Below, in pieces: positions 33,216-51,678 of a stretch of DNA of 64,000 nucleotides. The position numbers and the translations under genes were made by a program. The number at the start of each line of letters is the position of its first letter. The first letter of the stretch is position 1. The stretch comes from an uncultured Gemmatimonadales bacterium (GTDB lineage Bacteria > Gemmatimonadota > Gemmatimonadetes > Gemmatimonadales > GWC2-71-9), in NCBI GenBank assembly GCA_963730185.1, contig CAVSQW010000015.1, forward strand, positions 32,001 through 96,000, written 5' to 3'. The notes below the pieces were generated by a model. It was not told the DNA's origin. It saw only the letters and a program-made list of their open reading frames with translations, and searched no databases.

Positions 33216-33312
33216 AAGGGAGTAGGACAGGACTGAAGGCAGCAGCCGCTCCTCCCTTGCCCGCCATCTGATCTCCCCCTAACCTCCAGATGTCGCTGTC
33301 TTGGGGGGGCTC

Positions 33313-35633: not shown

Positions 35634-36020
35634 TTACGTCTCGAAGAGAGGTATTCGGAGTGCTCGGGCGGCGGCGGCGAGGCGGGCGTCGTAGGTCGCC
35701 ATCCGGAGACGGCGCTCGCGGGCGCGGAGGAAGAGAATCGAGGCCAGGTGAAGCGCGTCGAGGGTCCGAACCGGCACCGGAAAGGGCTCGAGCCCCCGGG
35801 CCAGGACCGGCGGGGCCAGCTCGATCAGGGCAACGCGGCCGAGCAGGTCGCGGACGGCGTCGCCGTGAGACTTGGCCAGGCCGCGGGCGTTGACCCGGGT
35901 CCAGAGCTCGTACTCGAGCAGGCGGCTGGAGACGAGCGGCTCGTCCCAAAGGGTGGGGGGCGGCGTGCGGTCTTCGGCGAGCAGCTGGGCGAGGGCGACC
36001 GAGGTGTCGAGGTAGATCAC
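35634..36020 (-). CDS. PIN-domain (VapC) toxin
   Basis: IYLDTS, EYE, RTLDALHLAS, TYDARL. Confidence 0.9.
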   Translation of the reverse strand: MIYLDTSVALAQLLAEDRTPPPTLWDEPLVSSRLLEYELWTRVNARGLAKSHGDAVRDLLGRVALIELAPPVLARGLEPFPVPVRTLDALHLASILFLRARERRLRMATYDARLAAAARALRIPLFET

Positions 36021-36307
36021 CGGTCGCCGCGGTCTTGGTCCAGCTCGTCGAGGAGGGAAGCGAGGGGGGCCACGGGCTGGCGGGGTGGCGGCTCCCGCAC
36101 GGCCAGGAGCGGCGGCGTGAGCCATCCCTCGCGAACGGCGTCGGCCAGGAGCGCGTCCTGGAGCGACCCGCTCCGCCCGGGCCGAGGCGGGACCAGCTCG
36201 GCGACCACCCGGTCACGGCTGGTAACCAGGACGGTCTCGCCGTTCTGGGCCAGGCGGACGTACTCCGCCAGCCGGTTCTTGAGCACCTTGAGTCCCACGA
36301 CGACCAT
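36017..36307 (-). CDS. Phd/YefM-family antitoxin
   Basis: VGLKVLKNRLAEYVRLAQNGETVLVTSRDRVVAEL; overlaps the toxin start. Confidence 0.88.
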   Translation of the reverse strand: MVVVGLKVLKNRLAEYVRLAQNGETVLVTSRDRVVAELVPPRPGRSGSLQDALLADAVREGWLTPPLLAVREPPPRQPVAPLASLLDELDQDRGDR

Positions 36308-36419: not shown

Positions 36420-36737
36420 CACCGCAGAGGACGCCGAGGGCGCTGAGGGCTCCCGTGTCGTTGCCGGCATCCCGGCTGGGTGAGGACTCGGCTTGATGTG
36501 GGGGTGTGCGTGGTGGGGATGTCGCGGGGGCCTGGGATCGGTAACCACTGGTTAACCACAGAGGGCACAGAGGGCACAGAGGAACAGCCACAACGATAGG
36601 ATACAACGACAATCGCTCAATCCAGGTCCTCCGCGGACTCTGCGACCTGTGCGGTGAATTCTGCTGTGGTTGCCGTTGTTGTTGCTGTTCCCCCCTAGTT
36701 GCCGTTCTCTGTGTCCTCTGTGCCCTCTGTGGTTGAC
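36420..36737. repeat. Cluster of ACC(G/A)CAGAG repeats including nested inverted pairs
   Basis: CACCGCAGAGGACGCCGAGG at 36420; AACCACAGAGGGCACAGAGGGCACAGAG (~36553) pairs with CTCTGTGTCCTCTGTGCCCTCTGTGGTT (~36707-36734); a further reverse copy lies near 36630-36659. Confidence 0.7.
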
Positions 36738-36860
36738 CAGTTGTTGCGGAGCCCAACCAGCCGACGGCTGCGGACGAGGCACGTCGTGACCCGGATTGGG
36801 CTCTTGCGCGGTGGCGCGGCGGCCCCTACCTATGGGACGATCCCCAGTCTGGAGTCCCCG

Positions 36861-38117
36861 ATGCCCCAGTTGGCGCGGTTTCCTGGGTCGTGGCTCGTGG
36901 TGCTGGCGGCCGCCGCCTGCACCGGGAGCACCGAGATCGTCACGCCGCCGCCTCCGCCGGCGAGCGGGTTCACGCTGCGATTCGTGCCGGAGCCGGAGGA
37001 CGGGGCGACGGCGGCGGCGCTGGGATGGGGAAGCGGGTTACCGGGGTTGGCGGTGACGCTGACGCCGTCGGACTCGAGCCAGCCGGCGCGGACCTTCACG
37101 AGCGAAGGCGACGGGATGGTGGCGATCCCGGACCTGGTGGCGGGGGACTACATCGTGGAGGCGAGCCGGTGGCTAACGGCGGGGGAGCGGGCGGAGCTGG
37201 CGAGCGGGGACGATGGGGACGGGTTCGCGACCCGGACGGTGCTCCGAACGGGAACGGGGGTGGGCAGTACGACGATCGCGGTGCCGGCGAGCCGGCGGCG
37301 GTCGCTAGTGATCAGTGAGTGGGCGTTCAACCCGGGGCAGACCCCTGGTCGTGGCGGGTACGATTTTGGCGGCTTTCTGGAACTCTACAACAACTCGGAC
37401 ACCACGCTGTTCCTCGATGGCATGGTCGTGGCGCGGGGACTGGATCACGAGCTGGACTATCCTCTTTATCCGTGTGGCGGCGAGTATCACACGTTCAGTG
37501 CCGACGCAAGAGGTATTTGGACGCTCGGATACCAGGTCTTTCCCGGTGCCGGCCATGACTATCCGATCCTTCCTGGCCACGACATCGTGATTGCCACTGA
37601 TGCCATCGACCATCGACCCTTCTATCCCGGGGCAATGGATCTCAGTCATGCAGATTTTGAGTTCGTCGGCGCCGCGGACCCCGACAATCCTGCGGTTCCC
37701 AACATGGTGAACACGGGGTATGACCGCGACTTGCAGGGGCATGGCCTCTTTTGGCAGGACTTGGGGGCGATCGCCGTGGTGGCGATGCCGCTCGACACGG
37801 CCGCCCTGACGACGGCGGTATACCCCGGCACCAGCACATTCGCGTTCCCACGAATCCCGGGCGATAAGGTCCTCGATGTTGTTGCCATGAGGGCAGTCCG
37901 CGACTATGGCTACGCGTTGTGTCCTTCCATCCTGAATCCGCAATTCGATCGCGAACCGTTTGTGGGGCGCGGTGCAGACGTGGTGGCCGAATTTCTCTAT
38001 TCGGTATCACGGCGCGCCGCCGACCTGCCCAACGGCGGCCGGCCGATCCTACGAGACACGAGAAGCAGTGATGCCGACCTGGTACGAACCATACGAACGC
38101 CGGGGGTCGTCCCATAG
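36861..38117 (+). CDS. DUF4876-like lipoprotein, copy 1 (D1)
   Basis: Lipobox LAAAAC; FLELYNNSDTT.FLDG, FPG.G..YP..PG..IVIATDAIDH, DLSHADFEF, DPDNPAVPN match my recollection of DUF4876 / lamin-tail-like lipoproteins. Confidence 0.8.
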   Translation: MPQLARFPGSWLVVLAAAACTGSTEIVTPPPPPASGFTLRFVPEPEDGATAAALGWGSGLPGLAVTLTPSDSSQPARTFTSEGDGMVAIPDLVAGDYIVEASRWLTAGERAELASGDDGDGFATRTVLRTGTGVGSTTIAVPASRRRSLVISEWAFNPGQTPGRGGYDFGGFLELYNNSDTTLFLDGMVVARGLDHELDYPLYPCGGEYHTFSADARGIWTLGYQVFPGAGHDYPILPGHDIVIATDAIDHRPFYPGAMDLSHADFEFVGAADPDNPAVPNMVNTGYDRDLQGHGLFWQDLGAIAVVAMPLDTAALTTAVYPGTSTFAFPRIPGDKVLDVVAMRAVRDYGYALCPSILNPQFDREPFVGRGADVVAEFLYSVSRRAADLPNGGRPILRDTRSSDADLVRTIRTPGVVP

Positions 38118-38170: not shown

Positions 38171-38419
38171 CTAGTAGAGGCAGCGGCAGCAACCGTTGGT
38201 CGAGCCCCACTGAGCCTCGACCTCCTCCCCGTGGACCGCCACGCACGCGGCCAAGCACGCTCCCTCGTCCGGCTGCTGCCCGAGCCAATTCCAGCCGTCG
38301 TCGGGGCAGGTCAGCGCATTGGCCGGCGTGGCAACCGCCACCACCCCTCCGAACGCCAACGCCCCCGCCACCGCCACTCCAAACCCCCATCCGCCGAGCC
38401 TCTTGATGCTGCGTGACAT
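38171..38419 (-). CDS. Secreted six-cysteine peptide precursor, copy 1 (p1, 82 aa)
   Basis: Strong RBS AAGGAGGAG; signal peptide ending PANA; mature LTCPDDGWNWLGQQPDEGACLAACVAVHGEEVEAQWGSTNGCCRCLY; four paralogues in the window. Confidence 0.85.
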   Translation of the reverse strand: MSRSIKRLGGWGFGVAVAGALAFGGVVAVATPANALTCPDDGWNWLGQQPDEGACLAACVAVHGEEVEAQWGSTNGCCRCLY

Positions 38420-38472
38420 GATCTCCTCCTTGCTGCGGGAAGAACAGCGAGCACCGCCGCGACCCGAGGTGG

Positions 38473-38784
38473 TCACGGGCGGACGCCCGCGGAAGTAGTC
38501 GTGGGTGGGGTCGCCCCGGGGGCGACCGTGCCAGGGGGCGGTGGGTCCCACGCGCCGAAGTCCCCGCGCAGGGCGGCGTAGACCGAGTCGAGGACCGGCC
38601 CGGGCTCGAGCCGGCCGGTGTGGGCAAAGACCACCTCGCCCCAGTGGTTCAAGACCAGGGTCTGCGGCACGGCCCGGGCCCGGGCGAGCTGGGCGGTCTT
38701 CCAGTCGGGGAAGGTGGCCACTGCAAAGGCCAAGGCGTGTTCGGCCGCGGAGCACTGGAGGGTCCCGACCGAATCCAGGCCAAG
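38473..38784 (-). pseudogene. 3' remnant of TlpA-like thioredoxin (CPYC and anchor missing)
   Basis: LGLDS...ATFPDWKTAQLARARAVPQTLVLNHWGEVVF matches the C-half of 45511-46161; homology stops abruptly near 38784. Confidence 0.8.
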
Positions 38785-38938
38785 CTGCCGCCTGTCAAGC
38801 CGTGCCTCCTCCACGCCCGTTTCACGTGCTCGTCGGCGCGAGCCAGCCTGCGCACGGGCTCCGTGGCCCGGTTTGGGCTCTTGCGCGGTGGCGTGGCGGC
38901 CCCTACCTATGGGACGATCCCCAGTCTGGAGTCCCCCC

Positions 38939-40186
38939 ATGCCCCGCATGGCGCGGTTTCCTGGGTCGTGGCTCGTGCTGCTGGCGGCCGTCGCCTGCAC
39001 CGGGAGTACCGAGATCGTGACCCCGCCGCCCCCGCCGGCGAGCGGGTTCACGCTGCGATTCGTGCCGGAGCCGGAGGACGGGGCGACCGCCGCGGCGCTG
39101 GGGTGGGGGAGCGGGTTACCGGGGCTCACGGTGACGCTGACGCCGACGGACTCGAGCCGGCCGGCGCGGGCCTTCACGAGCGACGGGGACGGGACGGTGG
39201 CGATCCCGGACCTGGTGGCGGGGGACTACATCGTGGAGGCGAGCCGGTGGCTGACGGCGGCGGAGCGCGCGGAGCTGGCGAGTGGGGACGACGGGGACGG
39301 GTTCGCGACCCGGACGGTGCTCCGGACGGGGACGGGGGTGGGCAGTACGACGATCGGGGTGCCGGCCAGCCGGCGGCGGTCGCTCGTGATCAGTGAGTGG
39401 GCCTTCAACCATTTCGGGCTGCCGGGAATCGGCGCCTATACCTACGACGGCTTCCTCGAGCTCTACAACAACGCGGATACCACGATTTACCTGGATGGGA
39501 TGATCATCGCCGAGGGGTTTCGGAACGGTATCGCCGACACACCGGCCTTTCCCTGCGCCGAGAGTCGGCCGTTTCGGGACGATTCCGCCGGGGTGTGGAG
39601 CTGGGCGATGGAGCGCTTTCCCGGCACGGGGCACTCGTTTCCGATTCACCCAGGCGAAGTCAGGACGGTGGCAACGGATGCAATTGACCATCGGGCCCTG
39701 TTCCCCGACGCGCTGGACCTGAGTCACGCCGACTTCGAGTTCCGTGGCTCGGGCGACGTAGACAACCCGGCGGTGCCGGACCTGACGGACCTCAGCCTCG
39801 CACCGTACCCCGACGGTCATGGCCTGGAGTTCCAGGGACTTGCCATCATTGCGGTCGTGGCGCTGCCCCTCGATCCAGCCAACCTGGTGCGAGGCAACGC
39901 AGGCGGCGGGGAGTACGTGCGCATTCCCAAGGCGCGAATCATGGACATCCTGACGCTCCGCTCGAACTTCGCGACCGGTTTTACGGAGTGCTCCCCGCTC
40001 GTGGCGGCGGGGATCGACCGGGAGTGGTCGGATGTCCGAGGGACCGACTACCGAGATGAGCACCGGCACTCGGTTTCCCGGCGTGTTGCGGGGCAGGGCC
40101 TCAGCGGGCGGCCGCTGCTCTGGTACACCCGGAGCTCGTTCGCCGACTTCGAGCGGACCTTGCGGTCGCCCGGCGCAATACGGTGA
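38939..40186 (+). CDS. DUF4876-like lipoprotein, copy 2 (D2, most divergent)
   Basis: Same 157-codon N-terminus (to ISEWAFN), lipobox LAAVAC; divergent C-terminal domain retains FLELYNN, TDAIDH, ADFEF, DNPAVP. Confidence 0.8.
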   Translation: MPRMARFPGSWLVLLAAVACTGSTEIVTPPPPPASGFTLRFVPEPEDGATAAALGWGSGLPGLTVTLTPTDSSRPARAFTSDGDGTVAIPDLVAGDYIVEASRWLTAAERAELASGDDGDGFATRTVLRTGTGVGSTTIGVPASRRRSLVISEWAFNHFGLPGIGAYTYDGFLELYNNADTTIYLDGMIIAEGFRNGIADTPAFPCAESRPFRDDSAGVWSWAMERFPGTGHSFPIHPGEVRTVATDAIDHRALFPDALDLSHADFEFRGSGDVDNPAVPDLTDLSLAPYPDGHGLEFQGLAIIAVVALPLDPANLVRGNAGGGEYVRIPKARIMDILTLRSNFATGFTECSPLVAAGIDREWSDVRGTDYRDEHRHSVSRRVAGQGLSGRPLLWYTRSSFADFERTLRSPGAIR

Positions 40187-40270
40187 CCCTGAGTCTCTGG
40201 TAGCAACACCCTCAGGCCCCGGCTTCACGGGCGCGAGGGGCCCGGCGCGTGGCCGAGCCCCTCCGGCGCC

Positions 40271-40517
40271 TCAGAAGTAGCAGGTGCAGCAACCCTGCTG
40301 CGTGTACCGGACCTGCACGAGTGTGGGATGCAGCGCGTAGCACGCGTCCCAGCAGTCGTTGTAGGACGGCTGGTATCCCAGCCAGTTCCACCCCGTCGTC
40401 CGCGCAGGACATGGCATTGGCCGGCTTGGCGACCGCCAGCAACCCTCCGAACGCCAACGCCCCGGCCACCGCCAGCCCGAACCCCCATCCGCCGATCTTC
40501 TTCACGCTGCGTGACAT
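40271..40517 (-). CDS. Secreted six-cysteine peptide precursor, copy 2 (p2), with one extra base in a homopolymer
   Basis: Removing one C from CCCC at 40391-40394 gives 81 aa: MSRSVKKIGGWGFGLAVAGALAFGGLLAVAKPANA-MSCADDGWNWLGYQPSYNDCWDACYALHPTLVQVRYTQQGCCTCYF. Confidence 0.8.
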
Positions 40518-40567
40518 GATGTCATCCTGACTTGAAAGACGGCAGGCACCGCCGCGACCCGAAGTGG

Positions 40568-41219
40568 TCACGGCCGGATGCCCGCGGAAGGAGTCGGACG
40601 GGGTCGGGAACGTCCGGCCGCCGAGTCGGTGGGCGGCGGGTCCCACGCTCCGAAGTCGCCTCGGAGGGCGGCGTAGACCGAGTCGAGGCCTGGCCCGGGC
40701 TCGAGCCGGCCGGTGTGGGCAAAGACGACCTCGCCCCAGTGGTTCAGGACCAGGGTCTGGGGCACGGCGCGGGCCCGGGCGAGCTGGGCGGTCTTCCAGT
40801 CGGGGAAGGTGGCCACCGGGTAAGTCAGAGCGTGCTCGGCGGCGTAGTCCCGGACCCGTGGGAGCGAGTCCAGCCCAAGGCCAATCACCCCAACGAGGGG
40901 CCGGGCGGCGCGAGTCGACTCGGCCAGGGCCGCCCAGACCGGCAAGGTGGCCCGACAGTAGGGGCAGGTGGTGGTGAAGACGAAGACGAGCTGCCGGCCG
41001 GCGGTGTCGGCGAAGGCGCCGACGGTGACGGAATCGCCGGCGAGGGTCTTGGTCCGGAAGGTCGGCAGAGCGTAACCGCGATATGGAAGCGCCGGCTTTG
41101 GCCGTGAGCTCCAGGTAGGCCCGATTCAGCGCGACCTGCCGGCGGGCCAGCAGCACGACCAGGCCTGAGGCGACGAGCAGGGTGCCGCGCAGGAGGGCGG
41201 GAATCGATCGGGTTGCCAT
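40568..41219 (-). CDS. TlpA-like membrane-anchored thioredoxin, copy A (+1 indel near 41090)
   Basis: 652 nt versus 651 nt for the intact paralogue; LVFVFTTTCPYC and AVPQTLVL are retained across the frame break. Confidence 0.75.
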
Positions 41220-41817
41220 CGCGACGCTCGTGAGGTGGAGGGCCCCTCCACGATAACACGCGCCGGCTCCCGCCATAGAGCGCCAAGCGAGCCAGAAATG
41301 GTACCGGTTCAGGCCATGAGAGCCCCGGTGACGGAAAGGCGGGCATAGAGTCATTCGGCCCCATTGAGGCGTCGAGCGGATTCCGGTTATCCTGAGACGG
41401 ATACCTCGGACCTGGTGCCTATTTCGGATCAGTCGTTGTCGAAAGGTCCGCGGCACCTCGATGAGGCGCCGACCAGATCGTTGCCTTGCTAGAGACCTGA
41501 CCTCAGCAGGTTCGCGACCTGATCCGGGTCGGCTTCCACGATGCGCGACCGGCCGGTGGCGAGGCCGCCAGCTCGATGGTCAGAGCGCAGCGGCGGCAGA
41601 CGCTTCACCGCAGACCGAGCGTCGGGTCGGGGGAGCCTCGTCGAGGAAGGCGTGGGCAATGCCGCCGTCTGTCACTCCGTGCCTCCTTCGTACCTAGTTC
41701 GCACGTGCTCCTCCCCACGAGCCAGCCCTCGCACGGGCTCCGTGGCCCGGTTTGGGCTCTTGCGCCGTGGCGCGGCGACCCCTACCTATGGGACGATCCC
41801 CAGTATGGAGTCCCCCC

Positions 41818-43074
41818 ATGTCCCTAATCGCGCGGTGTCCTGGGTCCTGGCTCGTACTGCTGGCGGCCGTCGCCTGCACCGGGAGCACCGAGATCGTGAC
41901 GCCGCCGCCCCCGCCGGCGAGCGGGTTCACGCTGCGATTCGTGCCGGAGCCGGAGGACGGGGCGACCGCCGCGGCGCTGGGGTGGGGGAGCGGGCTACCG
42001 GGGCTGGCGGTGACCCTGACGCCGGCGGACTCGAGCCGGCCGGCGCGGGCCTTCACGAGCGAAGGGGACGGGACGGTGGCGATCCCGGACCTGGTGGCGG
42101 GGGACTACATCGTGGAGGCGAGCCGGTGGCTGACGGCGGCGGAGCGGGCGGAGCTGGCGGGCGGGGACGATGGGGACGGGTTCGCGACCCGGACGGTGCT
42201 CCGAACGGGGACGGGGGTGGGCAGTACGACGATCGCGGTGCCGGCCAGCCGGCGGCGGTCGCTGGTGATCAGCGAGTGGGCCTTCAATGTCGGGCAAACG
42301 CCCGGTCTCGGCGGCTACACCAACGGCGGCTTTCTCGAACTCTACAACAATGCCGACACGACGGTGTTCCTCGACGGCGTTGTTGTAGTGAAGGGCTTGG
42401 ACCAGGAGTTCGAATCGGCGGCCTTCCCGTGTTCTGCGTTCCGTCAGTACGCGAGTGATGCTGCAGGAATCTGGAGCCTTGCCTATCAAGTGTTTCCTGG
42501 TAAGGGCCGCGATTACCCTCTGGCGCCTGGGCACGTGGTCGTAGTTGCCACCGACGCCATCGATCATGGTGCGTTCTACCCAGCCGGCCTCGACCTCCGA
42601 TCGGCAGACTTCGAATTTGTCGGGACGAGTGATGCTGATAATCCGGCGGTGCCGAATATGGTAAACACTGGGTACGATCGTGACCTTGCGGGCCACGGCC
42701 TCGAGTGGGCGGAGCTTGGCGCGGTTGTTGCCGTTGCGAGACCGTTCGATACGACGGGCTTGGTCAGGGCGGTGTTCCCGGGTACGAGTACATTCGCCCA
42801 CCCCAGGGTTCCGACAAGTGCGGTGCTGGACGCTATCGCTATTCGGTCCAACTATGATCCGAGTCGCGGCGAGTGTCCCGACATCGTTAGTCCGCAGTTC
42901 GATCGGAACCCGTTTCGGGGGCGAGGCCGCGACCTGCCGATGGAGTTTCAGTACTCCGTATCGCGACGTACGATGCCCATCGAGATTGAGGGCCATGCAA
43001 TCCTACAGGACACCCGGGCCGGCAACGCAGACCTTGTCCGAAGTCCGAGGACCCCTGGCGTGATCCCGCAGTGA
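41818..43074 (+). CDS. DUF4876-like lipoprotein, copy 3 (D3)
   Basis: Same constant N-terminus and the same conserved motifs in a divergent C-terminal domain. Confidence 0.8.
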   Translation: MSLIARCPGSWLVLLAAVACTGSTEIVTPPPPPASGFTLRFVPEPEDGATAAALGWGSGLPGLAVTLTPADSSRPARAFTSEGDGTVAIPDLVAGDYIVEASRWLTAAERAELAGGDDGDGFATRTVLRTGTGVGSTTIAVPASRRRSLVISEWAFNVGQTPGLGGYTNGGFLELYNNADTTVFLDGVVVVKGLDQEFESAAFPCSAFRQYASDAAGIWSLAYQVFPGKGRDYPLAPGHVVVVATDAIDHGAFYPAGLDLRSADFEFVGTSDADNPAVPNMVNTGYDRDLAGHGLEWAELGAVVAVARPFDTTGLVRAVFPGTSTFAHPRVPTSAVLDAIAIRSNYDPSRGECPDIVSPQFDRNPFRGRGRDLPMEFQYSVSRRTMPIEIEGHAILQDTRAGNADLVRSPRTPGVIPQ

Positions 43075-43118
43075 CCGCGAGGTGACCTGCGGCCACCCCG
43101 CGGCGGTTCAGGCGGTCT

Positions 43119-43367
43119 CTAGTACAGGCAGCGGCAGCAGCCGTTGGTGGACCCCCACTGTGCCACGACGTCTGGGCCGTGAATGCTGGAGCAGACGTCG
43201 TAGCATACGCTCTGAGATGGCTGCTGCCCTACCCAGTTCCACCCGTCATCCTGGCAGTTCAGCGCATTGGCCGGCGTGGCAACCGCCACCACCCCTCCGA
43301 ACGCCAACGCCCCCGCCACCGCCACTCCAAACCCCCATCCGCCGAGCCTCTTGATGCTGCGTGACAT
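43119..43367 (-). CDS. Secreted six-cysteine peptide precursor, copy 3 (p3, 82 aa)
   Basis: RBS AAGGAGGAG; leader identical to p1; mature LNCQDDGWNWVGQQPSQSVCYDVCSSIHGPDVVAQWGSTNGCCRCLY. Confidence 0.85.
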   Translation of the reverse strand: MSRSIKRLGGWGFGVAVAGALAFGGVVAVATPANALNCQDDGWNWVGQQPSQSVCYDVCSSIHGPDVVAQWGSTNGCCRCLY

Positions 43368-43420
43368 GATCTCCTCCTTGCTGCGGGAAGAACAGCGAGC
43401 ACCGCCGCGACCCGAGGTGG

Positions 43421-43732
43421 TCACGGGCGGACGCCCGCGGAAGTAGTCGTGGGTGGGGTCGCCCCCGGGGCGACCGTGCCAGGGGGCGGTGGGTCCCACG
43501 CGCCGACGTCCCCGCGCAGGGCCGCGTAGACCGAGTCGAGGACCGGCCCGGGCTCGAGCCGGCCGGTGTGGGCAAAGACGACCTCGCCCCAGTGGTTCAA
43601 GACCAGGGTCTGCGGCACGGCCCGGGCCCGAGCGAGCTGGGCCGTCTTCCAGTCGGGGAAGCTGGCCACCGCAAAGGCCAAGGCGTGCTCGGCGGCGTAG
43701 CGCCGGACGGCCCCGACCGAATCCAGGCCAAG
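43421..43732 (-). pseudogene. 3' remnant of TlpA-like thioredoxin
   Basis: Same truncation point and junction sequence as 38473-38784, 4948 bp further on. Confidence 0.8.
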
Positions 43733-43886
43733 CCGCCGCCTGTCAAGCCGTGCCTCCTCCACACCCGTTTCACGTGCTCGTGGGCGCGAGCCAGCCTGCG
43801 CACGGGCTCCGTGGCCCGGATTGGGCTCTTGCGCGTTGCCGCGCCGGCCCCTACCTATGGGACGATCCCCAGTCTGGAGTCCCCCC

Positions 43887-45143
43887 ATGCCCCGCATGGC
43901 GCGATTTCCTGGGTCGTGGCTCGTGGTGCTGGCGGCCACCGCCTGCACCGGGAGCACCGAAATTGTCACCCCGCCGCCCCCGCCGGCGAGCGGGTTCACG
44001 TTGCGATTCGTGCCGGAGCCGGAGGACGGGGCGACGGCCGGGGCGCTCGGGTGGGGTAGCGGGTTACCGGGGCTGGCGGTGACGCTGACGCCGGCGGACT
44101 CGAGTCGGCCGGCGCGGGCCTTCACGAGCGAAGGGGACGGGACGGTGGCGATCCCGGACCTGGTGGCGGGGGACTACATCGTGGAGGCGAGCCGGTGGCT
44201 GACGGCGGCGGAGCGGGCGGAGCTGGCGGGCGGGGACGATGGGGACGGGTTCGCGACCCGGACGGTGCTCCGGACGGGGACGGGGGTGGGCAGTACGACG
44301 ATCGGGGTGCCGGCCAGCCGGCGGCGGTCGCTCGTGATCAGTGAGTGGGCGTTCAACGTGGGCTCCACGCCGGGTCTAGGTGGGTATTACACCGGCGGCT
44401 TCCTCGAGCTCTACAACAACAGTGACACGACCATCTATCTCGATGGCATGGTGGTGGCGCGAGGCCTCAACCTCGAGTTGGACTATCCGCTCTATCCCTG
44501 CAACGGGCCATACTACGCGTTCACGGCCGACCCGGCCGGTATCTGGACCCTAGGGTATCAAGTCTTTCCGGGGACCGGCCACGACTACGCCATCACGGCG
44601 GGCCAGGCTATCGTGATCGCGACGGACGCGATCGACCACCGGCCATTCTATCCAGGGGCGCTCGACCTGAGTCACGCGGATTTTGAGTTCGCTGGCAGCG
44701 CGGATCCGGACAACCCCTCCGTCCCCAACATGGTGAACACAGGATACGATCGCGACCTGTCGGGACATGGGCTGTTCTGGCAGGACCTTGGTGCGATCGC
44801 CGTGGTTGCGTTGCCCCTCGACACGACATCGCTGGTAAAGGCCATCTACCCTGGCCCTGGCACGTTCGCCCATCCGCGGATCCCTCGATCGAGGATTCTC
44901 GATGTCGTGGCGATGCGTGCGAGCCAGAGCTTTGACTATCCGCCATGCGCGACGATCATCAACCCAGAGTTCGATCACGAACCATTCCGGGGGCGGGGGG
45001 GAGATGTGGCGGCCGAGTTCCTGTATTCGGTGTCGAGACGGCCCACGGGCCTCCTCAGCGGTGGGCACCCAATTCTCCAGGATACCAGGACGGGAGAGGC
45101 GGATCTCCTTCGAACTGCCCGAACCCCGGGGCTGGTGCCATAG
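43887..45143 (+). CDS. DUF4876-like lipoprotein, copy 4 (D4)
   Basis: Same constant N-terminus; the C-terminal domain is closest to D1 (ELDYPLYPC, GIWTLGYQVFPG, GLFWQDLGAIAVVA, AEFLYSVSRR shared). Confidence 0.8.
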   Translation: MPRMARFPGSWLVVLAATACTGSTEIVTPPPPPASGFTLRFVPEPEDGATAGALGWGSGLPGLAVTLTPADSSRPARAFTSEGDGTVAIPDLVAGDYIVEASRWLTAAERAELAGGDDGDGFATRTVLRTGTGVGSTTIGVPASRRRSLVISEWAFNVGSTPGLGGYYTGGFLELYNNSDTTIYLDGMVVARGLNLELDYPLYPCNGPYYAFTADPAGIWTLGYQVFPGTGHDYAITAGQAIVIATDAIDHRPFYPGALDLSHADFEFAGSADPDNPSVPNMVNTGYDRDLSGHGLFWQDLGAIAVVALPLDTTSLVKAIYPGPGTFAHPRIPRSRILDVVAMRASQSFDYPPCATIINPEFDHEPFRGRGGDVAAEFLYSVSRRPTGLLSGGHPILQDTRTGEADLLRTARTPGLVP

Positions 45144-45211
45144 AGATCACAGAGGAGAAGCACCGGGCCGACCTGATGGGGTTCCGGCCGGCTCGGCGCT
45201 CTACTCGGAAA

Positions 45212-45460
45212 TCAGAAGAGGCAACGGCAGCAGCCGTTGGTCGACCCCCACTGCGACTCCACGTCCGGGTCATGGACAGCGACGCACGCTGCGTGACACG
45301 TTGCTGCGTCCGGCTGCTGCCCGAGCCAATTCCAGCCGTCGTCGGGGCAGGTCAGCGCATTGGCCGGCGTGGCAACCGCCACCACCCCTCCGAACGCCAG
45401 CGCCCCCGCCACCGCCAACCCGAACCCCCATCCGCCGATTTTCGTCATGCTGCGTGACAT
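45212..45460 (-). CDS. Secreted six-cysteine peptide precursor, copy 4 (p4, 82 aa)
   Basis: RBS CAGGAGGA; mature LTCPDDGWNWLGQQPDAATCHAACVAVHDPDVESQWGSTNGCCRCLF. Confidence 0.85.
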   Translation of the reverse strand: MSRSMTKIGGWGFGLAVAGALAFGGVVAVATPANALTCPDDGWNWLGQQPDAATCHAACVAVHDPDVESQWGSTNGCCRCLF

Positions 45461-45510: not shown

Positions 45511-46161
45511 TCACGGTCGGACGCCCGCGGAAGTAGTCGTACGCGCTTGGGGACGCCTGGCCGCCGAGTCGGCGGGCGGCGGATCCCACGCTCCGAAGTC
45601 GCCCCGCAGGGCGGCGTAGACCGAGTCGAGCACCGGCCCCGGTTCCAGCCGGCCGGTGCGGGCAAAGACGATCTCGCCCCAGTGGTTCAGGACCAGGGTC
45701 TGGGGCACGGCGCGGGCCCGGGCGAGCTGGGCGGTTTTCCAGTCAGGGAAGGTGGCCACCGGGTAGGTCAGGGCGTGCTCAGCCGCGTAGCGCTGGACCT
45801 TCCCGAGTGAATCCAGGCCGAGACCGAGGATCGGCGTCGAAGGCCAGCCGGCCCGGGTCGAGTCGGCCAGCGCGGCCCAGACCGGCAGGGTGGCGCGGCA
45901 GTAGGGACAGGTGGTGGTGAAGACGAAGACCAGTTGGCGGGCCGCGGTGTCGGCCAAGGCGCCGACGGTGGCCGAATCGCCGGCCAGCGTCGCAGCCCGG
46001 AAGGTCGGCAGAGCGTAGCCTCGATAGGGAAGGCCGGCTTTGGCCTTGAGCTCCAGGTACGCCCGATTCAGCGTCACCTGCCGGCGGGCCAGCACCACGA
46101 CCAGGCCGGAGGCGACGAGCAGGGCGCCGCCCAGGAGGGCGGAAATCGATCGGGTTGCCAT
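45511..46161 (-). CDS. TlpA/ResA-like membrane-anchored thioredoxin, copy B (intact, 216 aa)
   Basis: N-terminal TM helix, LPTF.A.TLAG, VFVFTTTCPYC, cis-Pro loop AVPQTLVL; ends 50 bp upstream of p4 on the same strand. Confidence 0.85.
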   Translation of the reverse strand: MATRSISALLGGALLVASGLVVVLARRQVTLNRAYLELKAKAGLPYRGYALPTFRAATLAGDSATVGALADTAARQLVFVFTTTCPYCRATLPVWAALADSTRAGWPSTPILGLGLDSLGKVQRYAAEHALTYPVATFPDWKTAQLARARAVPQTLVLNHWGEIVFARTGRLEPGPVLDSVYAALRGDFGAWDPPPADSAARRPQARTTTSAGVRP

Positions 46162-46389: not shown

Positions 46390-46640
46390 CCGCGCCACCT
46401 CGACGAGGCGGCCGACCAAGTCGTTGCCTCCCTGGAGCCCCTGCCCCAGGAGGTGCGTGACTTGATCCGGGTTGCTGGTGGCGGCGTTTCTCCTCATCTT
46501 TGAGCGGGTCACGGTCGAGCATGCCGCCGATGGAGCGGGGTTCGGCCGGGCCGCGACCCTTCGCCATCACATGAAAGCCCACTTCCGCCGACTGCCGTCG
46601 GCCCTCCGCGTCGGAGGCACGGCCGCGTGGCGCGACCTGC
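46390..46640 (+). pseudogene. Remnant of an AraC-like regulator running into the TonB receptor ORF
   Basis: LLVAAFLLIFERVTVEHAADGAGFGRAATLRHHMKAHFRRLPSALR resembles the second AraC HTH (compare 32345-33130); no intact N-terminus. Confidence 0.5.
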
Positions 46641-49432
46641 TTCGACAGCTGCCTCGGCTGGGCCGCCGCGGTACGCTGGCGGCGCTCGCCTGCGTCATGC
46701 TGGGCCGCGAGGCGCGGGCCCAGGCGGCCGAGGGCGGAGCGGTGATCGCCGGCCGGGTCACCGACGCGGTGACCGACGCGCCGCTCGCCGGGGCCACGGT
46801 GGCGCTGGAGGGCGGCGCGCTGGCCGCGACCAGCGGGGCCGACGGGCGCTACCGGCTGGCGGGGGCGCCGCCTGGTCCGGCGGTGCTCCGGGTGGTCCGG
46901 ATCGGCTACGCGCCGGTTCGCCGGCCGCTGACGGTGCCGCTCTCGGGCACGGTCACGGTGGACGTGGGGCTGGCCCGGAGCGCCCTCAACCTGCCGAACC
47001 TGGTGGTGACCGCCGATCCGGCGGGACGGGCCCGGGGCGAGCTGGGAACGGCGTCGGTGATCGGGAGCGACGCGATCCGGAACCAGACCGCGGCCAGCCT
47101 GGCCGGGGTGCTGGAGCTGGTGCCCGGCACGACCCTCCAGCCGCCCGGGCTCGACGGGGTCCAGCAGTTCTCGCTCCGGTCGGTCCCGATCTCGACCGGC
47201 GGCGGTGCCACCGGCCCGAACGCCCTGGGCCCCTCGGCCCAGAGCCTGGCGTCGTTCGGGACCCAGATCGTGCTGGACGGGGTGCCGGTCTCCAACAACG
47301 CCAACCTCCAGTCGCTAGGTGCCCGTGGCGAGCTAAGCTTCGCCTCGGCGGCCGGCGGCGGGATCGACCTCCGCCGGATCCCGGCGGCCACCCTGGAACG
47401 GGTCGAGGTGATCCGGGGCGTGCCCTCGGCCCGGTTCGGCGATCTGACCCAGGGCGTGGTGCTGGTGGACACCCGGGCCGGCGTGGTGCCGCCCGAGGCC
47501 CGGCTCCGTTTCGACGCCCGGACGGTCGAGGGGACCCTGCTGGGCGGCGCCCGGCTCTTCCCGGGCCAGACCGGCACCGCGAGCGTGAACCTGGCCCGGA
47601 CCCGGCTGGCGCCCGGCACCCGGGACGACGTGGGCTCCCGGATCTCGGGGCAGCTGGCCCACCGGTTCGCCTCCGACCGGCTGACCCTCGACACCCGGAT
47701 CGACGCCTTCCAGGTGCTTCAAGACGAGCCGGCCACGCCGGTCTTCCCCGACGTCGCGGCCCGGAGCCGGGACAACGGGCTCCGGGTGTCGGAGCGGGCC
47801 CGCTACCGGCTGGGGCGGTCGAGCGGGCTCGAGTGGACGGCGGCCTTCGAGGGCGGCCGGCAGCGGTCGTTCACCCAGGCGCCCCGGCTCCGGGGCGCGA
47901 TGCCCTTCACCAACCGGCTCACCGAGGGGACCCAGGACGGCAAGTTCATCGGCGGGGTGTACGTGGCCCGGGTGGACGTGGACGGCGATCCCCGCCAGGT
48001 CTACTCGCGGCTGGAGCTGACCGCGCCGGCCAGGTTCGCCGGGATGGACCACCTGACCCGCACCGGGTTCGAGCTCCGCCGGGAATGGAACGGCGGGCCC
48101 GGGGTCCAGTTCGACGTGGAGTTTCCGCCGCAGGTGGAGTTCAACGGGGTGCAGGGCTACGACCGGCCCCGCCGGTTCGACGCGATCCCGGCGCTGGTGA
48201 CCAGCGCGCTCTATCTGGACGACCGGATGACCCGGGAGCTGGGCGGCACGGTGGTCAACCTCCAGGCCGGTCTCCGGTTGGAGCTGCTGCACGACGGGAG
48301 CACCTGGGCGTCGGGCGTGCGGGACGCGGTGCTGGGCCCCCGGCTGCAGCTGGAAGTGGCCCCGGCCGAGCGGGTCCGGTTTCGGGCGGGGGTGGGGCGG
48401 GTCGCGAAGGTGCCCTCGCTGGCGGAGCTCTTTCCCGGGGCGCAGTACTACGACCTGGTCAACTTCAACTACTACGCCAACGATCCGGCCGAGCGCCGGG
48501 CCATCCTGACCACCCGGATCCTGGACCGGACCAACCCCGACCTCCGGATGATGCGGGCCGACAAGGCCGAGGCGGGCGTCGAGGTGGACCTGGGCGGGGG
48601 CGGGCAGGTGGCGCTGGTGGGATACCTGGACCGGATCCGGAACGGGGTCGGGATCCGCGAGCTGCCGACCTTTCTGCTCCGCGACCGCTACGCCGTGGAC
48701 AGCGCCACCATCGGGACCGGCCGGCCCCCCGACGTGCTGTTGCCGCCCGCGGCCCAGGACACGGTTCCCACCCTGATCGACCAGCCGGCCAACAACCTGG
48801 ATCTCCGGAGCGAGGGGCTCGAGCTGACGGCCATCCTCCCGGAGATCCGCCCGCTCAAGACCCGGATCGACGTCCAGGGCGCCTGGGCCTGGAGCCGGCT
48901 CTACGACGCCGGGGTCCAGTTCAACAGCTCGTTCACCGACTTCCAGCTGACCGAGCACATTCCCCGGGCGCCCTACTGGCAGGCCCTGACCCGGAAGGGG
49001 GAGCGCCTGCTGATCACCACCCGGCTGATCCACCAGCAGCCCAAGGCGGGCCTGGTGATCACCGGGACGGTGCAGGTGACGGTCCGGGAGCTCCGCCAGG
49101 ACGTGGGGGGCACCGACACGCTGTCGTTCGCCGGGTACATCACCCGGGCCGGCGAGCTGGTGCCGGTGGCGCCGGCCGACCGGGCGCTGCCCCAGTACCA
49201 GGATCTCCGCATCGCGCGAACCGGGCTGATCGACCCGCAGAAGGCGTCGCCCGACTGGCTCTTCAGTCTCCAGGTGAGCAAGACCCTGCCGCTCGACGGG
49301 CGGCTGTCTTTCTACGCCTACAACGCGTTCGACCGGATCGGGAGCTACGGGGGGCGGACCACGGTGCCGCGGCTCTATGCGCCGGTGCGGTTCGGGCTCG
49401 AGGTGTCGATGCCGTTGCCGGGCGCCCGTTAG
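46571..49432 (+). CDS. TonB-dependent receptor with N-terminal carboxypeptidase-regulatory-like domain (start uncertain)
   Basis: Signal ending ARAQ; IAGRVTDAVTDAPLAGATV; plug motifs LELVPG, IVLDGVPVSNNAN, ERVEVIRGVPSARFGDLTQGVV; beta-barrel C-terminus FGLEVSM. Confidence 0.9.
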   Translation: MKAHFRRLPSALRVGGTAAWRDLLRQLPRLGRRGTLAALACVMLGREARAQAAEGGAVIAGRVTDAVTDAPLAGATVALEGGALAATSGADGRYRLAGAPPGPAVLRVVRIGYAPVRRPLTVPLSGTVTVDVGLARSALNLPNLVVTADPAGRARGELGTASVIGSDAIRNQTAASLAGVLELVPGTTLQPPGLDGVQQFSLRSVPISTGGGATGPNALGPSAQSLASFGTQIVLDGVPVSNNANLQSLGARGELSFASAAGGGIDLRRIPAATLERVEVIRGVPSARFGDLTQGVVLVDTRAGVVPPEARLRFDARTVEGTLLGGARLFPGQTGTASVNLARTRLAPGTRDDVGSRISGQLAHRFASDRLTLDTRIDAFQVLQDEPATPVFPDVAARSRDNGLRVSERARYRLGRSSGLEWTAAFEGGRQRSFTQAPRLRGAMPFTNRLTEGTQDGKFIGGVYVARVDVDGDPRQVYSRLELTAPARFAGMDHLTRTGFELRREWNGGPGVQFDVEFPPQVEFNGVQGYDRPRRFDAIPALVTSALYLDDRMTRELGGTVVNLQAGLRLELLHDGSTWASGVRDAVLGPRLQLEVAPAERVRFRAGVGRVAKVPSLAELFPGAQYYDLVNFNYYANDPAERRAILTTRILDRTNPDLRMMRADKAEAGVEVDLGGGGQVALVGYLDRIRNGVGIRELPTFLLRDRYAVDSATIGTGRPPDVLLPPAAQDTVPTLIDQPANNLDLRSEGLELTAILPEIRPLKTRIDVQGAWAWSRLYDAGVQFNSSFTDFQLTEHIPRAPYWQALTRKGERLLITTRLIHQQPKAGLVITGTVQVTVRELRQDVGGTDTLSFAGYITRAGELVPVAPADRALPQYQDLRIARTGLIDPQKASPDWLFSLQVSKTLPLDGRLSFYAYNAFDRIGSYGGRTTVPRLYAPVRFGLEVSMPLPGAR

Positions 49433-49974
49433 GCGGGGTCGAGCAGGTGGCCGAGCGAGACGCCGAACGGATGCGCCGCCCCGGCAGGGCGCCACTCGAG
49501 CCGGTCGGTGACCGTGACCGGGAACCGGGCCTCGGGTGTCCAGACCTCCGCCAGGCGGCGATCGGGATCGATGATCCAGTAGAGCGGCACGCCCTGCGCC
49601 TGATAGAGGCGGCGCTTGGTGAAGCGGTCGGCCCGGCGGGTGCTCGGGCTCACGACCTCGACGGCCAGGAGGAGCCGGCTCACATGAGCCCAGGCGGTGA
49701 TGCCGGCCTGCTCGGGCGGGACCACGAAGAGGTCCGGCTGGACCAGCAGGTCGGGCGCCCAGGAGAGGTCGGCCGGCGCGAAGAAGGCTCGCCCCACCGG
49801 CTCCCGCTGGAGGTAAGCATGAACCGCCGCGAAGAGCTCGCTCAGGACTCGCTGGTGCGCGGGACGGGGGGCGGGCGTCACCAAGAGCTCGCCGTGGACC
49901 GTCTCGTAGCGGTTGCCGTCGGCGGGCAAGGCGAGGACCATCTCGGCGGAATAGAACGGAGCGGACATGCCCAT
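49429..49974 (-). CDS. Uma2 family (PD-(D/E)XK) endonuclease-like protein
   Basis: RYE.VHGELLVTPAP...HQ, VQPDLFV, LAVEVVSPST...DR..KRRLY...GVPLYWIIDP. Confidence 0.9.
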   Translation of the reverse strand: MGMSAPFYSAEMVLALPADGNRYETVHGELLVTPAPRPAHQRVLSELFAAVHAYLQREPVGRAFFAPADLSWAPDLLVQPDLFVVPPEQAGITAWAHVSRLLLAVEVVSPSTRRADRFTKRRLYQAQGVPLYWIIDPDRRLAEVWTPEARFPVTVTDRLEWRPAGAAHPFGVSLGHLLDPA

Positions 49975-50013
49975 AAGCTCGGCTCGGCTGGGGGGAAAAG
50001 GCAAGGGCACGAC

Positions 50014-51678
50014 ATGACCGCAAGCTGGTCAGGGTGGGCCGCGAGAACACAACCAAAAAAGCGCATAGCGGCGCCGGTGATTGCCGGCCTGGCCGTCGCC
50101 TGGCTCGGGCTCGGCGGACCGCTCGCCGCCCAGTCGATCGGTCTGGCGCCCGAGCACGACCTGCCGGCCTGGCTCGACCGGTGGAGCGTGCTGGCGCCCC
50201 GGGCCGATCTGCCCCGGCACTTTCCCACCGCCGGTTCGGCGCTCCCGGCGGGGCTCTTTCCGGCGACCACCATCGGGCTCTTCTGGACGGCGGCCAACCC
50301 GGCCGGTCTGGCTGGGGCGGTGGACAGCGCCTGGACCGAGTTCCGGGCCGCGGCGGCGGGCAGCCGGGGTGCGTTCCGGCGGCCGCTCGATCCGGGGGGC
50401 ACGCGGCTTCGGCAGATATCGGCGACCTCGTGGCGACCGCTGACCGACCGAGTCACCATGCTGGGCCGGGTGGTGCTCGACCAGGAGCGGTTCGATCCCG
50501 GGAGCCAGGCCGACGAGAGCGAGCCCTACCCGACCAGCCCGTTCGTCACCACCGACAGCAGCACCAGCCCCACCCGCCGGACCCGAGCCCGGCTGGAGGG
50601 CGTGGCGGCCTGGCGGCTCGGGGCCTGGGCGTTAGGCGCCGACCTGGGCTACGAGACCAACGAGCGGCGGACCATCGAGGCCGGGTTCGCCCGACTGACC
50701 CGCCAGACGATGCCGGGCGTGGCGCTGGGGGTGACCCGGACCGCGGGCGGACTGACGGTCGGGCTGGTGGGCCGCTACCGGAACCGGGCCGAGACGATCG
50801 ACCTGACCGAGCGGGCCGCCGAGGGGCAGGTGGTGGACCTGGCCGGGTACCAGGGGGTGACGCCGATCAGTGTGAACCAGAGCTACTATCGGCGGATCGA
50901 CGAGGACGTCCCCTCGGCCAGCCTCGGCCTGAGCGGCGCGGGGCTGGGCGGCCGCTGGGTGGCGTTCGTCGAGGTGTCGCGCCTCCGCGAGCGGCGGACC
51001 CGGCAGCAGCAGGACCAGCCCGCCTACGACCGGTGGAACGCCGGCGCCTGGACCGCGGGCGCCGCCTACCAGCGCGGCCTGGGCCGCTCCGGCCGGTGGC
51101 GGCTGACCCTGGACGGCCGCTTCACCGCCCTCACCGGCGACGGCGACCTGGCGCTCGACTCGGCCGGCACGGTCTTCACCGCGACCGAGCGGGCCTTCGA
51201 GGGGCGGGCCGAGCTCCGCCGGCTCCGCTCGGCGGGCGGCTGGTCGGGGCTGATCGCGGTGAAGTCGCGCTACGAGAACCGGGTCCGGAACGACTCGATC
51301 GCGGTGATCGGATCGAAGATCCAGACCGCCGGCCTGGGCGTGGAGCTGGAGCTGGGCCACCCATTGGCCCCTGGCGTGGCATTCCTCGCCTCGGGCGGGC
51401 TGGTGAGTCAGGCGTCGAGCGCCGCGATCCCGGCGCCGCTGGTGCAAGGCGCCGTTTACCAGCGGCTGATCGCCCCGGAGCTCGACTTCTACGCCCGCGA
51501 CCTGACCCCCTGGTCGGCCGGCCTCGCGCTCCGCTGGCAGGCGAGTGCCCGAACCGCCCTCTGGCTGGCCGGGCACGCCGAGGGGGTGAGCCCCCGCGGT
51601 CCGATGGGGCCGACCGGCTACACCGGCTCGGCGGGGCGATCGGCGTCGAGTGTCGTGCTCGGGGTCGTGCTTCGCTGA
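50014..51678 (+). CDS. Outer-membrane beta-barrel protein (DUF6850-like)
   Basis: Signal peptide ending LAAQ; NPAGL, G.FRRP, PF...DS motifs and alternating beta-strand pattern. The family label is from memory of TonB/DUF4876 loci. Confidence 0.65.
   Translation: MTASWSGWAARTQPKKRIAAPVIAGLAVAWLGLGGPLAAQSIGLAPEHDLPAWLDRWSVLAPRADLPRHFPTAGSALPAGLFPATTIGLFWTAANPAGLAGAVDSAWTEFRAAAAGSRGAFRRPLDPGGTRLRQISATSWRPLTDRVTMLGRVVLDQERFDPGSQADESEPYPTSPFVTTDSSTSPTRRTRARLEGVAAWRLGAWALGADLGYETNERRTIEAGFARLTRQTMPGVALGVTRTAGGLTVGLVGRYRNRAETIDLTERAAEGQVVDLAGYQGVTPISVNQSYYRRIDEDVPSASLGLSGAGLGGRWVAFVEVSRLRERRTRQQQDQPAYDRWNAGAWTAGAAYQRGLGRSGRWRLTLDGRFTALTGDGDLALDSAGTVFTATERAFEGRAELRRLRSAGGWSGLIAVKSRYENRVRNDSIAVIGSKIQTAGLGVELELGHPLAPGVAFLASGGLVSQASSAAIPAPLVQGAVYQRLIAPELDFYARDLTPWSAGLALRWQASARTALWLAGHAEGVSPRGPMGPTGYTGSAGRSASSVVLGVVLR

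Follow-up and report, generated by a model that had tools for sequence, protein, structure and literature searches.

What role can be assigned to a set of very small, cysteine-rich, putatively secreted peptides encoded in tandem by an uncultured bacterium of the order Gemmatimonadales? Their genes lie in a 64,000-nucleotide stretch of contig CAVSQW010000015.1 (assembly GCA_963730185.1, positions 32,001 to 96,000, forward strand), which we call the window and from whose first base all coordinates are counted. A reading of these letters alone (hereafter the original prediction) had proposed acidic six-cysteine peptides resembling defensins of the cysteine-stabilised alpha-beta (CS-alpha-beta) type, with a receptor-mediated or metal-binding role rather than a lytic one. 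Our analysis suggests that the peptides are cargo, matched allele by allele to neighbouring surface lipoproteins and imported through these and a TonB-dependent transporter, a reading to which we give a probability of about 0.55. The peptide family and the gene module in which it sits are real and undescribed; the fold is of a known kind, the genetic context is new.

The first step is to establish that the genes exist. The window carries four:

38171..38419 (-), six-cysteine peptide precursor 1, 82 amino acids, intact (open reading frame and tblastn)
40271..40517 (-), six-cysteine peptide precursor 2, reading frame broken by a one-base insertion at about 40394
43119..43367 (-), six-cysteine peptide precursor 3, 82 amino acids, intact, its first 35 codons DNA-identical to those of copy 1
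45212..45460 (-), six-cysteine peptide precursor 4, 82 amino acids, intact

The 5.27 Mb genome holds no copies beyond these four by tblastn. A six-frame scan of the whole genome for the cysteine pattern gave five matches, four of which are the peptide genes, and a rule for short open reading frames with a hydrophobic leader and a terminal CxC gave three, namely the three intact copies. Because the pattern scan returns these genes almost exclusively, a chance origin is excluded, and the four genes are confirmed as real. The original prediction had named a lack of purifying selection on the cysteine and tryptophan positions as evidence that would tell against it; the mature parts are under purifying selection, with non-synonymous over synonymous divergence (dN/dS) of 0.24/1.32, 0.12/0.57 and 0.26/1.82 across the three pairs of intact copies (ratios 0.14-0.21). 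Its cysteine and tryptophan pattern, including the adjacent fourth and fifth cysteines, holds in the window, as does net acidity (mature charges of -6, -3 and -5 for copies 1, 3 and 4), which extends to the wider family. Where precursors of 81-82 residues had been proposed, the three intact ones all have 82 and copy 2 is no intact reading frame, and the spacer from the histidine to the glycine before the CC pair, given as 12 or 13 residues, is in fact 11-12.

Each peptide gene belongs to a larger repeat. The cassette, about 2.1 or 2.9 kb long and present four times in tandem, consists of a DUF4876 lipoprotein gene on the forward strand and a peptide gene and a thioredoxin-fold gene on the reverse strand, every peptide gene being downstream of the thioredoxin-fold gene (whole or broken) and tail-to-tail with the DUF4876 gene. 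All four matches to PF16215 in the genome are in this array, one tail-to-tail with each peptide:

36861..38117 (+), DUF4876 lipoprotein, putative lid allele 1, 418 amino acids, PF16215 at 46 bits, above the cut-off
38939..40186 (+), DUF4876 lipoprotein, putative lid allele 2, intact (Pfam)
41818..43074 (+), DUF4876 lipoprotein, putative lid allele 3 (Pfam)
43887..45143 (+), DUF4876 lipoprotein, putative lid allele 4 (Pfam)

Lid 1 has a lipobox cysteine at residue 20, a transthyretin-like N-domain (about 34-147) and a variable C-domain (about 148-418). Its AlphaFold2 (AF2) model, with a predicted local distance difference test score (pLDDT) of 91.8, resembles the fold of BT_1938 (4q1z) with a Foldseek E of 1e-18 and a Z of 27.9, the root-mean-square deviation being 12.1 over 344 residues and the two domains being hinged differently. 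The DUF4876 proteins BT1938 and BT3632 are predicted to act as transporter lids, the opening being about 20 A (Price et al., bioRxiv 10.1101/2023.03.17.533168), and it is because of this prediction that we assign a surface position and transporter contact to the window proteins. With a PF16215 match above the cut-off, a lipobox, the BT_1938 fold and a neighbouring TonB-dependent transporter, they are putative surface lids of that transporter.

What links lid and peptide is the way in which they vary together. Identity among the four cassettes at the DNA level is 85-100% over the lid N-domain and 70-100% over signal and thioredoxin, and it falls to 25-80% between about 44,380 and 45,320 (copy-4 coordinates), a segment made up of the lid C-domain, the spacer and the mature peptide. 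The lid N-domains are 92-96% identical (dS 0.11-0.17) and the C-domains 44-74% (dS 2.5 or saturated); dS in the flanks is 0-0.17, against 0.57 to saturation in the block of lid C-domain and mature peptide. Copies 1 and 3 have DNA-identical signals and mature parts separated by a dS of 1.3, and copy 1, while 100% identical to copy 3 in its signal, has its closest match in copy 4 for the mature part (81%) as well as for the lid C-domain (74%). The peptide and the lid C-domain closest to those of copy 2 are both found in the metagenome locus L065, and P0168, from another assembly, has a C-domain 99% identical to that of lid 2 beside an N-domain of 88%. This pattern suggests that alleles have been exchanged by recombination within the conserved flanks. 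Among 16 within-genome paralogue pairs from 7 sets, which are not independent, mature peptide and lid C-domain are strongly correlated (rho 0.83), while mature peptide and N-domain (-0.02) and signal and C-domain (0.15) are not. Since peptide and lid domain co-vary between near-identical flanks, the peptides are probably cargo reserved for matching receptors, and not antibiotics of the ordinary sort.

If the association is functional it should extend beyond one genome. The remaining members of the module in the window are a thioredoxin-fold gene in each cassette and, beyond the array, a transporter and a DUF6850 protein:

38473..38784 (-), thioredoxin-fold remnant, residues 114-216 only, no CxxC (tblastn)
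40568..41219 (-), thioredoxin-fold copy 2, frameshifted at about 41091
43421..43732 (-), thioredoxin-fold remnant, residues 114-216 only (tblastn)
45511..46161 (-), intact thioredoxin-fold protein, 216 amino acids, CPYC, N-terminal hydrophobic segment, TlpA/ResA/StoA-like
46472..49432 (+), open frame with TonB-dependent transporter, homology from about 46736, start codon approximate
50002..51678 (+), DUF6850 outer-membrane beta-barrel protein, PF21012 at 50.9 bits, start approximate

We counted neighbours around 46 peptide genes in 38 loci fetched via peptide matches, several of the loci being close kin and so not independent. The thioredoxin gene accompanies 41 of the 46 (distance up to 2 kb), the lid 39 (up to 1.5 kb) and the transporter 27 (up to 8 kb); where there is enough flank (at least 2 kb on both sides for the first two) the fractions are 23/24, 20/24 and 12/15. 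DUF6850 recurs behind the transporter in related loci, and peptide, thioredoxin, lid, transporter and DUF6850 form a recurring five-gene module. A survey across the phylum, of the kind that the original prediction had suggested, gave peptide genes in at least 14 of 400 other Gemmatimonadota genomes, from four families (a lower bound, 13 candidates per genome having been scored). Lids occur in 29 of the 400 and in 12 of the 14 peptide-positive genomes. As a reverse test, the loci of all 17 lid-positive, peptide-negative genomes were fetched: five have a thioredoxin gene with a divergent cysteine peptide (L075, L080, L083, L084, L085), one has a truncated peptide gene (L082), and in 11 none was seen, four of these being lid fragments only. 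The transporter is better conserved than the lids (median identity 54% versus 39%). We found no account of a module of peptide, thioredoxin, lid and transporter in the mostly open-access literature, and no mention of DUF6850.

Side by side with the main peptide type, L075, L080, L083, L094 and L109 carry shorter cysteine-rich peptides (68-73 amino acids) within the same module, starting with CxxC or CxC and having CC at the helix position, a second, divergent type. In L058 (4432-5664, genome G025) a 411-residue open reading frame with no Pfam match stands between thioredoxin and peptide and may act as an additional maturation factor. The remaining neighbours differ from locus to locus (toxin-antitoxin genes, insertion sequence (IS) elements, housekeeping genes), AraC-type or extracytoplasmic function sigma genes often flank the transporter, and no ATP-binding cassette (ABC) exporter recurs among the 112 neighbour open reading frames scanned.

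The same survey bears on another explanation, namely that peptide and thioredoxin are a secretion module that merely shares an island with an importer of outside substrates, joint variation being a product of linkage. Thioredoxin and peptide do stand alone in L047, L053, L056 and L059, lids and transporter stand with no peptide seen in L076-L078 and L086-L088, and the one Bacteroidota locus examined has no such peptide. However, the association persists through at least four gene orders (tail-to-tail, peptide-lid-transporter, lid-peptide and divergent) in four families, and duplications have repeatedly copied lid and peptide together (the window, L016, L051, L067, L094). We consider such hitchhiking improbable.

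What kind of ligand would the lids receive? A profile of 14 close homologues retrieved 202 cluster representatives at E<=0.001, and the best 150 of these 202 were used further. Left out of alignments A2 and A3 were 10 of the 150 falling outside 70-110 amino acids (nine of them long repeat-like sequences or short pieces) and three truncated or frameshifted sequences; alignment A3 holds 142 clean sequences of about 70-110 amino acids, five from another search. Every named source among the matches listed is given as Gemmatimonadota, Gemmatimonadaceae or Longimicrobium, most members carrying no name, so that confinement to Gemmatimonadota is suggested and not proven. The family consensus has eight cysteines, C1..GxC2..C3xxxC4..GxC5..C6C7xC8, all eight being present in 124 of the 142. 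C2 and C5 are both present in 124 members, both absent in 17 and discordant in one, and this joint presence or absence implies that they are bonded to each other; such a pair is the canonical loop-to-strand bond of cis-defensins. The window copies have Gln and Trp in place of the pair, and a quick tree with weak support requires two joint losses; the six-cysteine form appears to be the derived state, C2 and C5 having probably been lost jointly in the window lineage. Only the cysteines and one glycine of the mature part are conserved above 85%, and the net charge has a median of -4 (120/142 at -2 or lower, 1/142 at +2 or higher). None of the 142 came near a cut-off in an NCBIfam scan.

The predicted structure is compatible with a defensin scaffold. 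An AF2 model from 144 sequences (mean pLDDT 95.9, predicted template modelling score 0.76) is beta-alpha-beta-beta, with a strand at 10-13, a helix at 17-28 carrying Cys20 and Cys24 (CxxxC) and strands at 33-36 and 42-46, the latter carrying Cys43 and Cys45 (CxC). Foldseek with this model gave no match at E<=0.001, and the best Z in VIA-align was 3.6, plant defensins (3.0-3.5 for defensins) and scorpion-type peptides being tied with PAN/apple domains (2.2-3.6); the scores are weak because a size of 47 residues usually gives weak scores. The defensin-fold plant ligands of the receptor complexes 5gyy and 5yah are among these weak matches. The tie is what speaks for a miniature PAN/apple- or WSC-like module for adhesion to glycan or protein, the alternative fold raised in the original prediction, in that 7mob (Z 3.6) and 2ll4 (Z 3.3) equal the defensins. 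Sequence profiles lean towards the defensins. The family profile has 40 weak matches among PDB sequences (best E 0.029), which apart from one anticoagulant protein are defensins, scorpion-type toxins and designed relatives, that is, CS-alpha-beta proteins. At E<=0.1 Pfam assigns AtDEF-like to 34 of the 142 members (best 2.7e-6), Gamma-thionin to 26 and Toxin_2 to nine, whereas neither WSC nor PAN is among the best 25 of the 28 Pfam families matched; a few relatives bear a precomputed PF25052 match. The language-model (Atlas) neighbours of the eight-cysteine member P0120 are also defensin clusters, at 0.80-0.86, all below 0.9 and leads only. The adhesion module is very improbable, and little supports it.

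The CS-alpha-beta proposal is supported by prediction as regards the CxxxC helix and the CxC strand and gives way on the third canonical disulfide, which the window peptides lack together with the GXC gamma-core. Prediction supports a peptide that works like a cis-defensin scaffold, the window form failing one membership feature. By homology to CS-alpha-beta proteins, C55-C78 and C59-C80 would be bonded in the window precursors, and C38-C77 by elimination.

That CS-alpha-beta peptides are rare in bacteria, as the original prediction put it, needs qualifying: 74 bacterial cis-defensins in five classes have been published, from Proteobacteria, Acidobacteria and Actinobacteria (Cardoso et al. 2024, PMC11561630), none of them from Gemmatimonadota, and the main text of that paper, in the part available, contains no mention of Gemmatimonad, TonB or thioredoxin. 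The closest likeness is to its class III, secreted CS-alpha-beta peptides of diderms in which acidic residues are common and whose fourth bond, Cys1-Cys6 (Cys5 in another passage), would equal the bond proposed by elimination for our eight-cysteine relatives. Class III comprises three Polyangiaceae sequences with an unstructured N-terminal tail of 15 residues, where here two to seven residues precede Cys1; the window form, with three bonds and without the canonical loop-to-strand bond, is set apart from class III by description only (PMC11561630).

A mechanism that would account for peptide and module together is as follows. The peptide would be exported via Sec and folded by the co-oriented CxxC oxidoreductase; a parallel for thioredoxin-assisted folding of a peptide is sublancin, which is folded by BdbA/B. 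Once released, it would be captured at the cell surface by the cognate DUF4876 lid, which would hand it to the single shared TonB-dependent transporter for import. Several lids per transporter would add specificities, from which it follows that lid-only loci may be pirates or eavesdroppers and that lid arrays fit the cargo reading better than an immunity function. The receptor-mediated role of the original prediction thereby gains concrete candidates in lid and transporter, binding itself being proposed from the pattern of variation. A conserved pair of flanks around a hypervariable ligand-and-receptor block, with orphan receptors, is also the arrangement of agr, ComQXP, Rap-Phr, pyoverdine-FpvA and the plant SCR-SRK system. 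There is no sequence relation to any of these, and here the receptor candidate is the lid of an outer-membrane transporter and the ligand a disulfide mini-protein. The idea of an arrangement like the plant S-locus, in which ligand and receptor lid would be inherited and exchanged together as a matching pair of alleles and form private channels for metal capture or kin recognition, falls somewhat short of an even chance, and we hold the claim that allele-matched import of peptides is a system of a new kind with the same reserve.

The main rival to matched cargo is polymorphic toxin and immunity, in which the peptides are narrow-spectrum bacteriocins that enter relatives via the transporter and each lid allele neutralises its own peptide. 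In polymorphic toxin loci a block is swappable, and paired and surplus immunity genes are kept after the toxin decays. The module likewise has a variable block that can be exchanged between conserved flanks, as many lids as peptides and, in many loci, surplus lids, and a mobile island is suggested by its varied surroundings, which include toxin-antitoxin pairs and IS elements. The genomes G276 and G272, producers in which no entry route was found, would be immune for that reason. The fold, too, is that of defensins, and the defensin-like actifensins are antibacterial (PMC6989792). Lids moreover outlast peptide decay, in L082 and in copy 2 of the window. Cassette 2 contains two one-base insertions within 700 bp, each of which is absent from one relative's contig; related sequence is present in small shares in eight DNA sequencing runs and in no RNA run among those listed, and in the four DNA runs examined it comes in pieces, none of which spans a cassette. 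A frameshift control over 23 other genes and 27,384 aligned bases found no true frame change, the one flagged case being tandem paralogues, and an adjoining regulator gene is broken as well:

46400..46670 (+), broken AraC-type regulator gene, recognised with a profile of 7 syntenic homologues (E 3e-17), bounds approximate

Its C-terminal part is clear, its N-terminal part is weak and in a different frame, and its middle is apparently deleted; direct pairwise comparison at this position was negative. The clean control and the broken AraC gene favour real decay of peptide production in cassette 2, with the lid kept, over the alternative of polishing errors in repeats.

Against a toxin stand the charge of the family (median -4) and the finding that a defensin from myxobacteria, xanthusin-1, showed no activity in antimicrobial assays (PMC11561630). 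The lid family, furthermore, is a predicted transporter partner that also occurs without peptides, one would not expect most loci to keep the entry receptor next to the gene for the toxin, and with one transporter serving several lids, immunity borne by a lid would not be dominant. On balance we judge toxin and immunity unlikely.

Other broken genes and fusions deserve record. In L019 (1350-2560, genome G164) a peptide gene is broken by a transposase-bearing insertion, and in L082 (9600-9812, genome G289) by a deletion, the lids being intact in both. What looks like a fusion of peptide and lid in G289 (L082) is not taken as one, as the truncated peptide gene runs in-frame into a lid gene that has its own lipoprotein signal.

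Several observations weigh against matched cargo. Over 13 six-cysteine pairs, with no correction for kinship, a Mantel test gives a rho of 0.35 (p 0.007), and peptide and lid share a nearest neighbour in 6/13; over 35 pairs the partial correlations are alike for C- and N-domain (0.36 and 0.31). Linkage alone could yield much of the co-variation, because mature peptide and lid C-domain are adjacent in tail-to-tail cassettes. Co-directional paralogue pairs, in which the two are separated, number only two: that in L055 is supportive (signal, mature part, lid N and lid C at 88/54/84/67) and that in L051 uninformative. G276 and G272, 95-96% complete, have thioredoxin and peptide, and neither a lid nor this transporter was found in them. 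Known cargoes of transporters with lids other than SusD are at most 1.4 kDa (bioRxiv 10.1101/2023.03.17.533168), and the peptides here are about 5 kDa. A metal role in particular is set back by the mature peptides, which have no conserved His, Asp or Tyr ligand and no other non-cysteine ligand, and by the neighbourhoods, where the 112 open reading frames scanned include no release machinery, be it PepSY reductase, FeoB or M16 peptidase. The homologues behind the iron data discussed next are Bacteroidota proteins with an identity of about 25%, and a cysteine-rich peptide is absent from the single locus of this kind examined. A complex prediction of lid 1 (28-418) with mature peptide 1 speaks neither for nor against matched cargo: it scored 0.02 against a mark of 0.32, its controls not being folded.

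As for the purpose of matched cargo, a private carrier of a nutrient metal is a tentative proposal and a self-recognition signal a slightly more doubtful one. Iron depletion induces PG1019-22 21-215-fold and BT3625-33 37-128-fold (PMC10434189), and these data, the sole functional ones on this transporter lineage, point by analogy to iron. The Bacteroidota loci BT1938/39, BT3632/33 and PG1019-22 combine transporter, DUF4876 and DUF6850, the same three gene families as here; they differ in that the one locus examined has neither a peptide nor a thioredoxin gene linked to it, no lid allele arrays are described for them in bioRxiv 10.1101/2023.03.17.533168 or the available part of PMC10434189, and they gave no phenotype in 519 fitness assays (bioRxiv 10.1101/2023.03.17.533168). 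At the locus of a transporter homologue in Prevotella nigrescens (L110, 6947-16667), an insulinase (M16) peptidase gene follows DUF6850 and DUF4876, with feoB adjoining; the full order is transporter, a small lipoprotein-like gene, DUF6850, DUF4876, insulinase and feoB, which suggests, by analogy, a lidded protein-import system in Bacteroidota. A distant transporter-lid-DUF6850 locus (L087, 1768-8807) adjoins a CobW-type GTPase, hinting at zinc or cobalt regulation. Import of a small folded protein for iron is known from the TonB systems Fus and YddB-PqqL (PMC6793856), which the Prevotella homologue of the window transporter resembles in having an M16 gene in its operon. Fus takes a host protein and uses no lid, while the candidate cargo here is encoded in the locus; a Fus-type M16 peptidase gene was not found beside the Gemmatimonadota loci in the same scan, M16 genes lying elsewhere in genome G000, away from the module. 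The available text of PMC6793856 makes no mention of Bacteroidetes. Identity with the Capnocytophaga iron capture system was also considered and rejected, the homologues of the latter being SusC/RagB-type (PMC5429918).

Some details of the window remain to be described. The transporter has Pfam plug, barrel and CarboxypepD_reg domains, is 61% identical to that of L001 and, over 938 columns, 25% identical to that of the Prevotella DUF6850-DUF4876 operon; it has no close relative among solved structures. Thioredoxin copy 4 is the sole complete copy, copies 1 and 3 being without residues 1-113, a truncation also seen beside a lid start in L065. The intact protein matches Pfam AhpC-TSA (E 1e-5) and Redoxin, with NCBIfam StoA, DsbE and MauD below cut-off, and CxxC is present in most thioredoxin homologues beside peptides. 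The original prediction had placed a 35-residue Sec-type signal with A-N-A cleavage on the precursors. A hydrophobic Ala-x-Ala leader is indeed present, the cleavage position being less settled. The rules for signal peptidase I require small residues at such sites, and among 145 aligned leaders the A-N-A site at 33-35 is conserved in about 35%, far less than Ala28 (74%) and Ala30 (87%), so that cleavage is at least as likely to follow residue 30 as residue 35. The leader is unusually conserved (Leu21 90%, Gly24 93%, Ala30 87%), and its motif L-x-F-G-x3-A-x-A (residues 21-30, 74-93%) exceeds most mature positions and may act in recognition, beyond the function of a simple signal peptide. The window peptides match no Pfam family at E<=0.1 and gave no usable match in the ESM Atlas, the family has no match in the plasmids or viral contigs searched, and promoter and terminator scans stayed at chance level.

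Further features lie within and around the array. A weaker AraC-type remnant (E 0.15) is found at about 41470-41650, upstream of lid 3. A Uma2-family putative endonuclease gene at 49429-50010 (-) is inserted between the genes for the transporter and the DUF6850 protein, direct neighbours in most related loci. At the left edge of the array a Phd/PIN toxin-antitoxin pair (35634-36307, -) and a 49-nucleotide inverted repeat (88%, 36533-36755) possibly mark an island border. A CusA/CzcA-like efflux gene, named by sequence likeness, is apparently split over two open reading frames (52060-55202, -), and a bacterial serpin with a lipoprotein-like N-terminus occupies 33301-34554 (+; Pfam E 8e-100). 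Genome-wide there are two Fur and three DtxR-type matches.

Multi-copy divergent arrays of defensin-like peptides are otherwise known from actifensins and actinodefensins (PMC6989792; NF038042). Those have a GA/GG-type leader and ABC transporters, where we find a Sec-type leader, a thioredoxin-fold partner, a lid and a TonB transporter, and NF038042 is touched by one of the 142 family members (E 0.095). What the Gemmatimonadota peptides add is a large, unnamed, acidic defensin-fold family from a phylum missing from the published bacterial-defensin survey, as far as its available text goes (PMC11561630), and their conserved genetic context predicts a non-lytic role. For TonB transporters with DUF4876 lids, whose expression in Bacteroides and Porphyromonas rises strongly when iron is depleted, they are also the first cargo to be proposed. 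With four peptide-lid alleles in one genome, allele matching is cheaply testable. A cognate binding pattern, if true, would amount to ligand-receptor allele pairing on a bacterial defensin scaffold, a use otherwise known from plant signalling. If the S-locus-like reading is true, this would be the first gene-encoded mini-protein cargo system of such a kind, and the orphan DUF4876-DUF6850 transporters would gain a class of substrate.

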